A stretch of 64,000 bases of DNA, from the sequence record PQ741806.1, one strand, 5' to 3'. The first letter of the stretch is position 1. Each line of letters starts with the position of its first letter. The notes beneath the pieces are model-generated. The model was not told the origin of the DNA. It saw only the letters and a list, made by a program, of their open reading frames with translations, and made no database searches. Positions 55,843 through 56,499 of this stretch are shown here, piece after piece. Source of the DNA: Pseudomonas phage Pa_AttikonH10. The translations under genes were made by a program, and so were the position numbers.

Positions 55843-56499
55843 TTAACATACAATTTCATTATCAGAAAATAGTTTATTATATTCTTTTAGTGCATCCCCA
55901 CCAACCATAGTACACCTGCCATAGAGAACAGATATAGCCAGATCTTTAATAGCGGGGTGACAATTATTTAACTTACTGATTAGTTGAGCTTTCTCAGTCA
56001 GATACAGTTCAGCAAAATCAGGCTTATCATTAACAATCGACCACATGTTTGAAATGGAATCTAGTAACTTAAGAGATTGACCACTCCATGAAATGCGAGA
56101 AAGTCTTTCATGTTGTAAACTAATCCTAGTTTTACGATTACCTTCGTAAGTTACATTTGTTAGTTCAGTTACTAAATTAACAACAGGGATTGAGAATAGT
56201 TTAGTTAGATCAGAAGCAGTTACAGCAGTATCCTCAATTACATCATGTAACCATGCTGCTTTATAAGCAGCGTGAGATAGGTCGAATAATTGCGCCATCT
56301 CAGCTACTTGTAATAAATGATGCCAGTAAGGTTTTCCTGAACCATCTCGCAATTGACCAACAGCAGTATGTGCCGCAATGGCATATGATGCAGCCATTGC
56401 ATTACCCGCATTGGAATATTTGCCATTACCTAGATGGTTAGTTAAGAGAATATTCTCTTTCCCTCCTTCTAGAATATCGATAATTTCATTCATTAGCAT
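55843..56499 (-). CDS. RelA/SpoT-type HD-domain hydrolase (small alarmone hydrolase-like)
   Basis: HHLLQVAEMAQL...AAWLHDVIEDT matches the Rsh hydrolase H...HD...LHDVIEDT signature; 218 aa, no synthetase domain. Confidence 0.6.
   Translation of the reverse strand: MLMNEIIDILEGGKENILLTNHLGNGKYSNAGNAMAASYAIAAHTAVGQLRDGSGKPYWHHLLQVAEMAQLFDLSHAAYKAAWLHDVIEDTAVTASDLTKLFSIPVVNLVTELTNVTYEGNRKTRISLQHERLSRISWSGQSLKLLDSISNMWSIVNDKPDFAELYLTEKAQLISKLNNCHPAIKDLAISVLYGRCTMVGGDALKEYNKLFSDNEIVC

Follow-up and report, generated by a model that had tools for sequence, protein, structure and literature searches.

gp246 of phiKZ-like jumbo phages is a single-domain RelA/SpoT-type hydrolase and a predicted small alarmone hydrolase

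The 64,000-nucleotide stretch of Pseudomonas phage Pa_AttikonH10 that was analysed here (PQ741806.1, called the window in the following) contains, on the minus strand at positions 55843..56499, a gene for a protein of 218 amino acids (aa) that is 100% identical to PHIKZ246 of phage phiKZ (NP_803812.1) and will be referred to as gp246. Gp246 belongs to the hydrolase branch of the RelA/SpoT homologues (RSH), and its similarity to these enzymes is far beyond chance. It consists of a single domain with the fold of the small alarmone hydrolase (SAH) MESH1, and it retains all metal ligands and catalytic residues of this family. By homology to characterised members, gp246 most likely acts as a Mn2+-dependent 3'-pyrophosphohydrolase on (p)ppGpp and probably also on (p)ppApp, a reading to which we assign a probability of about 0.8.

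Family assignment and predicted fold

The open reading frame (ORF) starts with ATG and fills the interval exactly with 218 codons and a stop codon, and numerous stops interrupt the plus-strand frame there. An earlier prediction, made from the DNA letters and their ORFs, had described the gene as a phage-encoded SAH consisting of the RelA/SpoT HD domain only. Its coordinates, length and motifs were all right, with the strand left unstated: the two motifs quoted as the hydrolase signature are residues 60–71 (HHLLQVAEMAQL) and 81–91 (AAWLHDVIEDT) of the translated ORF.

The Pfam model HD_4 (PF13328), which represents the RelA/SpoT-type HD domain, matched residues 36–122 (56134-56394) with 45.8 bits (E = 6.7e-12), above its gathering score of 27.2. 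The NCBIfam model TIGR00691 (spoT_relA) gave a local match (3e-16) that was limited to model positions 2–119 of 687, corresponding to the hydrolase part of long RSH enzymes, and PHROG 990 was matched with E = 6.5e-56. Besides HD_4, only the generic Pfam HD model was recognised, and no TGS, ACT or other regulatory domain was found by Pfam in the 218 residues, which bears out the earlier claim that synthetase and regulatory domains are lacking. The name 'GTP pyrophosphokinase', under which the same protein is deposited in some phage records, is wrong because gp246 has no synthetase domain. In other records it is called a 'hypothetical protein', and the RefSeq label of NP_803812.1, 'metal-dependent phosphohydrolase', is needlessly vague. 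These database names need correcting.

A search of the PDB with the single gp246 sequence retrieved Drosophila Mesh1 (9.4e-9), catalytic fragments of Rel, Lmo0812, human MESH1, the P. aeruginosa SAH (PaSAH) and a (p)ppApp hydrolase, and none of the matches was a dNTP triphosphohydrolase (dNTPase). With a family profile built from gp246 and 24 homologues, every one of which carries PF13328, human MESH1 was covered over its full length with E = 2.6e-31, and the 23 best PDB matches were all RSH hydrolase domains, SAHs or the (p)ppApp hydrolase Aph1. The first HD protein from outside the RSH family was 2pjq, with E = 5e-4.

These searches also bear on the possibility that gp246 is a generic HD phosphohydrolase, i.e. 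a dNTPase or nucleotidase that would serve phage nucleotide metabolism, as the RefSeq name would suggest. The generic HD model does match, although weakly and only at its threshold (E = 2e-4, 22.1 bits against a cut-off of 22), and a thymidylate synthase gene of the same orientation is found at a distance of about 6.5 kb. However, gp246 contains all the RSH-specific motifs, namely HDxxED, K..D...N and R/Y, and the difference between the E-values of MESH1 and 2pjq leaves little room for another HD family, so that we consider such a function highly unlikely. As a family assignment, a generic HD phosphohydrolase, dNTPase or HD-GYP protein was ruled out, because none of these was found among the significant PDB sequence matches or the top 50 structural matches.

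The AlphaFold2 (AF2) model of gp246 reached a mean predicted local distance difference test score (pLDDT) of 90 and a predicted template modelling score (pTM) of 0.88, and its confidence was weak only at residues 11–30 and in the final seven residues. The model shows one helical domain with a short N-terminal extension; nine core helices span residues 31–176 and are followed by two C-terminal helices. When the model was compared with the PDB by Foldseek, the top 50 matches comprised only Mesh1, SAH, (p)ppApp-hydrolase and Rel/SpoT/RelA structures. The best match was human MESH1 (3nr1), with a template modelling (TM) score of 0.84 (normalised to the target) and a root-mean-square deviation of 2.6 Å over 177 columns. 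As all top sequence and fold matches are of the RSH type, and not generic HD proteins or dNTPases, which had been named as the result that would speak against it, the original prediction stands with respect to the RelA/SpoT hydrolase identity. The 35-residue N-terminal extension is missing from Mesh1, Rel and most homologues and is partly common to phiKZ-like phages (P0002, PhiPA3 gp301, PS119XW gp298). In the viral structure library BFVD, many phage proteins with SAH-like folds were found, adding further phage examples and some from giant viruses.

Active site

Across 25 homologues, the residues H44, Y58, H61, H85, D86, E89, D90, R122, K144, D147, N151 and E169 were invariant, and H85, D86, E89 and D90 of the HDVIED motif were conserved in all sequences of two separate alignments (25/25 and 12/12). 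The alignment of the family profile to MESH1 equates the metal ligands H61, H85/D86 and D147 of gp246 with H35, H61/D62 and D122, the diad E89/D90 with E65/D66, and the putative substrate contacts R51, Y58, K144 and N151 with R24, Y32, K119 and N126, respectively. That these MESH1 residues act as metal ligands and catalytic diad is established knowledge based on the structures of Mesh1 and RelSeq (Sun et al., 2010; Hogg et al., 2004). Conservation of the Mn2+ ligands, which had been proposed as a check of the earlier prediction, thus extends to all four positions and to the ED diad.

By homology, H61, H85, D86 and D147 would hold a Mn2+ ion, and the E89-D90 diad would activate a water molecule for the cleavage of the 3'-pyrophosphate from hyperphosphorylated purine nucleotides. 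Gp246 is accordingly predicted to convert (p)ppGpp to GDP or GTP and pyrophosphate (PPi), and probably also (p)ppApp to ADP or ATP, as most characterised SAHs do.

An alternative is a catalytically dead pseudo-hydrolase that binds alarmones or a host protein, comparable to the HD domain of E. coli RelA. Drift at canonical positions does occur in the family: the SAH homologues of two other nucleus-forming Pseudomonas phages, PhiPA3 gp301 and PS119XW gp298, carry A/T in place of H44, A/V in place of Y58 and E in place of the metal ligand D147, and these two proteins may deviate from phiKZ gp246 in activity or specificity. Since no metal ligand or catalytic residue has been lost from gp246 itself, it is not a degenerate pseudo-hydrolase of this kind, and together with the strong purifying selection described below this makes a loss of catalysis in gp246 very improbable.

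Conservation and distribution

The description of gp246 as phage-encoded was confirmed by its surroundings: over the 8 kb in which the gene lies, identity amounts to 100% with phage KTN4 and to 97.8% with phiKZ, and all 47 records matching this region are Pseudomonas phiKZ-like jumbo phages. The gp246 protein is 100% identical across 45 phiKZ-like phage records. Relative to a metagenome sequence with 78–80% identity (L007), we obtained dN = 0.114, dS = 1.73 and dN/dS = 0.066, where dS is near saturation and the direction of dN/dS is nevertheless clear; gp246 is under strong purifying selection. Against phiKZ itself, dN/dS gives no information, since the nucleotide sequence of its copy of the gene (phiKZ locus L001, 6001-6657) is the same (100% identity). 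The surrounding 10 kb share 98.2% identity with phiKZ, and this divergence of 1.8% predicts about 12 differences for a gene of 657 nt, whereas none was seen. This could reflect unusually strong local conservation or recent exchange.

By tblastn, gp246 homologues were detected in 134 phage records, including 46 phiKZ-like phages at ≥95% identity. Homologues with 28–46% identity were present in PhiPA3, 201phi2-1, PS119XW, phiLBG22, D6, Viktualia, Vibrio phage pVa-21 and Xanthomonas phage XacN1, in jumbo phages of Serratia, Erwinia, Klebsiella and Dickeya, in Rhizobium and Agrobacterium phages, and in Acidovorax phage ACP17 and Salmonella phage SSU5.

Comparison with characterised hydrolases

SAHs of phages and prophages have been catalogued before, and two stand-alone phage enzymes, PbcSpo of PVP-SE1 and PaSpo of SSU5, were shown to neutralise all five toxic small alarmone synthetases (toxSAS) against which they were tested, which led to the proposal that phage SAHs bypass alarmone-mediated abortive infection (Jimmy et al., 2020, PMC7229694). 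SSU5 PaSpo (SSU5_099) has about 213 aa and is, like gp246, a stand-alone single-domain phage RSH hydrolase without an adjacent toxSAS gene. The two proteins are 34% identical over 145 aa (E = 4e-20) and share the non-catalytic motifs GNR..R and SIV..DP.F..YL.EK, which are missing from Mesh1 and Rel. These similarities would indirectly favour a place of gp246 in the PaSpo subfamily of SAHs (Atkinson/Jimmy classification). In contrast to gp246, PaSpo starts without the N-terminal extension of 35 residues, ends in a longer C-terminal tail and carries the consensus Lys after the conserved Arg, where gp246 has Asp. In addition, SSU5 is a 103-kb plasmid-like temperate Salmonella phage and not a nucleus-forming jumbo phage. 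By analogy, the toxSAS neutralisation observed with PaSpo is the activity that may be predicted for gp246.

MESH1 (human HDDC3, 3nr1/5vxa; Drosophila Mesh1, 3nqw) shares with gp246 the single-domain architecture and identical metal-binding and catalytic residues, but it is a eukaryotic enzyme of only about 24% identity that lacks the N-terminal extension, has K25 at the position of D52 and is a documented NADPH phosphatase. In a metabolic role like that of MESH1, gp246 might act mainly as a phosphatase on other 2'/3'-phosphorylated nucleotides, for example converting NADPH to NADH or using substrates of the type of 3'-phosphoadenosine 5'-phosphosulfate (PAPS), and would then reshape host redox or cofactor pools instead of alarmone signalling. 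The best profile and structural matches of gp246 are metazoan MESH1 structures, including the complexes with NADPH and PAPS (5vxa, 9chy), and a bacterial orphan SAH was reported to be metabolically promiscuous (PMC9765508). However, MESH1 hydrolyses (p)ppGpp and (p)ppApp as well, among characterised proteins the one closest to gp246 in sequence is a phage SAH active against toxSAS enzymes, and at such low identity the first rank of MESH1 in the PDB reflects its single-domain architecture as much as its function. A primarily metabolic role therefore appears improbable to us.

The host enzyme PaSAH shares the fold of gp246 (target-normalised TM 0.81–0.83), acts in the same cell and probably catalyses the same chemistry. 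Its sequence is distant (single-sequence E = 0.046, approximately 21% identity), and gp246 is therefore not a recent capture from the host.

In jumbo phages, an 'HD-alarmone PDease' (phosphodiesterase) was predicted and proposed to have a counter-nucleotide role (Iyer, Anantharaman, Krishnan, Burroughs and Aravind, 2021, PMC7824862). Gp246 falls into the same predicted enzyme class, and the homologues in phiKZ, PhiPA3, 201phi2-1, PS119XW and others extend the distribution of this class to the group 1, nucleus-forming phages. BBI90576.1, an example given in that study, was considered as a protein of PA02 or of XacN1, and neither assignment fits.

Aph1 from a Bacteroides prophage (7smg) is another HD-domain alarmone hydrolase of a phage element and was matched by the gp246 profile with E = 5e-13. 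It is specific for (p)ppApp, has 149 aa and eight helices, and lacks the helices that (p)ppGpp-capable enzymes have at their two termini (Ahmad et al., PMC10083569). Gp246 does not have this compact architecture: it possesses nine core and two C-terminal helices, i.e. the full MESH1-like helix set, and the TM score to 7smg is 0.69. Moreover, Aph1 adjoins its cognate synthetase toxin, whereas gp246 has no toxin neighbour.

Proposed function in infected cells

In infected P. aeruginosa, gp246 would be produced from a short gp245-gp246 transcription unit and would keep alarmone levels low, such that host translation, ribosome function and the supply of purine nucleotides may remain open to the phage. 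The same activity might blunt abortive defences that are based on alarmones or on pyrophosphorylation, such as toxSAS or Tas1-type systems. The role envisaged in the original prediction, removal of (p)ppGpp or (p)ppApp and relief from toxSAS enzymes, is a hypothesis that has been published, and partly tested, for other phage SAHs, and that may apply to gp246 by analogy.

Several observations weigh against this proposal. In the searchable literature, no paper on PHIKZ246/gp246 or on gp246 as an alarmone hydrolase was found. The substrate range cannot be read from the sequence, given that MESH1 is also an NADPH phosphatase and that SAHs can dephosphorylate tRNA 3' ends. Directly after the conserved arginine, where MESH1 (K25), Rel (K45) and the family consensus have lysine, gp246 carries D52, a change that could alter the binding of polyphosphates; as this position varies among the phage homologues (D, Y, K, S or E), we draw no conclusion on the K-to-D exchange as a determinant of specificity. 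Upstream of the putative transcription unit, a stretch of 30 nt separates the gp244 terminator from the start of gp245, and neither the early-promoter motif nor the TATG late motif was found in it. Transcription of phiKZ is independent of the host RNA polymerase (RNAP) (PMC7598289, PMC10914365), hence gp246 cannot benefit the phage by freeing transcription from ppGpp; it could still do so through ribosomes and translation factors, through the supply of purine nucleotides, or by evading defences built on alarmones or toxSAS enzymes. Finally, phiKZ fails to replicate on deep-dormant hosts (PMC10761892), indicating that gp246 by itself does not overcome dormancy.

Independence from the host RNAP weakens the classical stringent-response rationale and in this respect favours counter-defence as the relevant role of an enzyme of the same family. 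In this case, gp246 would clear the products of toxic alarmone synthetases, either the (p)ppApp made by FaRel/Tas1-type enzymes or the 3'-pyrophosphates attached to tRNA CCA ends by toxSAS of the CapRel/FaRel2/PhRel type, and would protect cytoplasmic translation, the step that the phage nucleus cannot shield, which makes this role an attractive possibility for a nucleus-forming phage. Besides the neutralisation of all five toxSAS classes by PaSpo and PbcSpo, this role is favoured by the finding that MESH1, the best structural match of gp246, and the SAH ATfaRel strip the 3'-pyrophosphate put on tRNA by toxSAS enzymes and restore aminoacylation (Kurata et al.). Iyer et al. likewise predict the HD-alarmone PDEases of jumbo phages to be counter-nucleotide defences, and Tas1, a (p)ppApp synthetase, occurs in strains of P. 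aeruginosa, with PaSAH giving partial protection against it (PMC10083569). On the other hand, among the toxSAS and CapRel systems of P. aeruginosa none is known that restricts phiKZ, and PADLOC gave no match for gp246 or for gp245. We regard counter-defence as the relevant role as conceivable at rather unfavourable odds, and it is compatible with general alarmone hydrolysis by gp246 and not exclusive of it.

A more specific version of this idea starts from the consideration that nucleus-forming jumbo phages, whose DNA is shielded from nucleases, continue to rely on translation in the host cytoplasm. Gp246 might then be a broad-spectrum eraser guarding cytoplasmic translation, with tRNA CCA 3'-pyrophosphates and the (p)ppApp made by toxSAS, CapRel or Tas1 enzymes as main targets and (p)ppGpp as a secondary one, and the lineage-specific N-terminal extension and the Lys-to-Asp exchange might be adaptations to tRNA or to a partner protein. 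We put this forward as speculation and consider it unlikely in this complete form.

Hydrolysis of (p)ppGpp and probably (p)ppApp remains the reading that we prefer for gp246. Stand-alone phage SAHs (since 2020) and jumbo-phage HD-alarmone PDEases (since 2021) were already known, and gp246 is a catalogued, uncharacterised phiKZ gene of a known and experimentally validated phage enzyme class. As the enzyme class, its presence in phages and the neutralisation of toxSAS are established, gp246 represents a useful case study rather than a new principle. If active, it would give phiKZ, a model nucleus-forming phage and candidate for phage therapy, its own switch for host alarmone signalling. Because phiKZ transcribes its genes with its own polymerases, any benefit must come via translation, nucleotide pools or escape from defence, and the phenotype of a deletion could help to separate these routes.

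Genomic neighbourhood and transcription

Every gene around gp246 lies on the minus strand, and the features of the region are listed in Table 1.

Table 1. Features of the gp246 gene, its product and its surroundings, in window coordinates.
Feature	Position	Strand	Evidence
Predicted small alarmone hydrolase gene (gp246), 218 aa	55843..56499	-	ORF list, translation, identity to PHIKZ246
N-terminal extension, residues 1–35	56395..56499	-	Two homologue alignments; low model confidence at residues 11–30
All-alpha RSH-type HD hydrolase fold, residues 31–211	55867..56409	-	AF2 model, Foldseek against 3nr1
Substrate-binding and first metal-ligand segment (R51, D52, Y58, H61)	56317..56349	-	Profile-to-MESH1 alignment, invariant columns
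HDVIED motif (H85-D86 metal ligands, E89-D90 catalytic diad)	56230..56247	-	Invariant in 25/25 and 12/12
KLLDSISN motif (K144; D147, fourth metal ligand; N151)	56047..56070	-	Aligned to MESH1 KLADKLYN
Shine-Dalgarno-like AGGA, 8 nt upstream of the gp246 ATG, within the gp245-gp246 spacer	56508..56511	-	Sequence read
Intrinsic terminator hairpin ACCCTCCC-TTCG-GGGAGGGT followed by TTTATTTATC, 19 nt past the gp246 stop	55805..55824	-	Terminator scan
gp245, 144 aa, T4 Arn.3/Y16D family (phrog_839; precomputed Pfam PF26092)	56530..56964	-	PHROG 2.7e-43
Terminator-like hairpin AAGAGCCC-TTCG-GGGCTCTT directly after gp244	56994..57013	-	Terminator scan, sequence read
gp244, capsid decoration protein (PF25621)	57015-57371	-	Pfam match
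Nine promoter-like motifs	12144, 13995, 14500, 38344, 49408, 52093, 55757, 58829, 59261	-	Motif scan of the window

Gp246 is separated from gp245 by a spacer of 30 nt. Since hairpins with GC-rich stems of 8 bp follow both gp244 and gp246, gp245-gp246 looks like a two-gene unit, and the two genes are probably co-transcribed. The hairpin behind gp246 fits the conserved phiKZ terminator motif determined by ONT-cappable-seq (PMC10914365). A family of nearly identical hairpins was observed on the minus strand (62877-62860, 59326-59309, 57012-56995 and 55823-55806), each with a GC-rich stem of 7–8 bp, a TTCG tetraloop and a T-rich tail matching that motif; the hairpin at 62860-62877 reads as a hairpin on the plus strand too.

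No RelA_SpoT synthetase domain was detected in the 18 neighbouring window ORFs that were scanned (52986 to 63998), which rules out a toxSAS-SAH type IV toxin-antitoxin pair within this region; gp246 is an orphan SAH, as opposed to a type IV antitoxin. PHIKZ237, known in phiKZ as a 'nucleotidyltransferase', belongs to the RlaP RNA-repair enzymes (PF10127, 2e-91 in phiKZ) and not to the RelA_SpoT family. In the window, a remnant of this RlaP-type pol-beta nucleotidyltransferase was found at 61128-61556 on the minus strand, of which only residues 135–277 align (85% identity), with two in-frame stops and without the N-terminal catalytic half, and the PHIKZ237 gene appears to have decayed in this KTN4-like phage.

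The family of gp245 was matched by tblastn in 1121 phage records, mostly of T4-like phages, which gave no gp246 match. Its members are inconsistently named 'C-N hydrolase', 'tRNA processing enzyme' or 'anti-restriction nuclease'. Gp245 had no sequence match in the PDB, and its AF2 model, built from four sequences, was unusable (pLDDT 39). The adjacency of gp245 and gp246 is kept in the metagenome relative and is specific to the phiKZ lineage. A conserved functional module of both proteins, for example in tRNA repair, is not supported, because the homologues of gp245 and of the SAH in PhiPA3 lie about 60 genes apart. The genes downstream of gp246 are phiKZ-specific genes of unknown function.

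A recurring intergenic AT-rich motif consists of a T-rich tract, TATTTAAA, three variable bases and then TATATTAC. Twelve of the 13 matches to TATATTAC lie on the gene strand, compared to a chance mean of 7.2 over both strands. The motif fits the published early promoters of phiKZ, which are composed of a T-rich tract and an extended -10 element (PMC8244752), and is consistent with recognition as early promoters by the virion RNAP. A scan for sigma-70 promoters yielded 25 sites against 17.5 ± 4.5 expected, which is not significant, and sigma-70 is irrelevant to phiKZ. One of the promoter-like motifs (58829) precedes gp242, and another (55757) lies just past the gp246 terminator. Downstream of the motif at 58829 follow gp242, gp243 and then gp244, and no terminator-like hairpin was detected from this motif to gp244. 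The structural gene gp244 appears to be located inside an early-looking unit, which was unexpected.

The thymidylate synthase gene mentioned above (PF00303, 1.1e-62) occupies 62886-63998 on the minus strand and encodes 370 aa. PF00303 matched this protein in two stretches, the best of them at residues 261–370, so that it contains additional or inserted sequence compared with the model of 266 positions.

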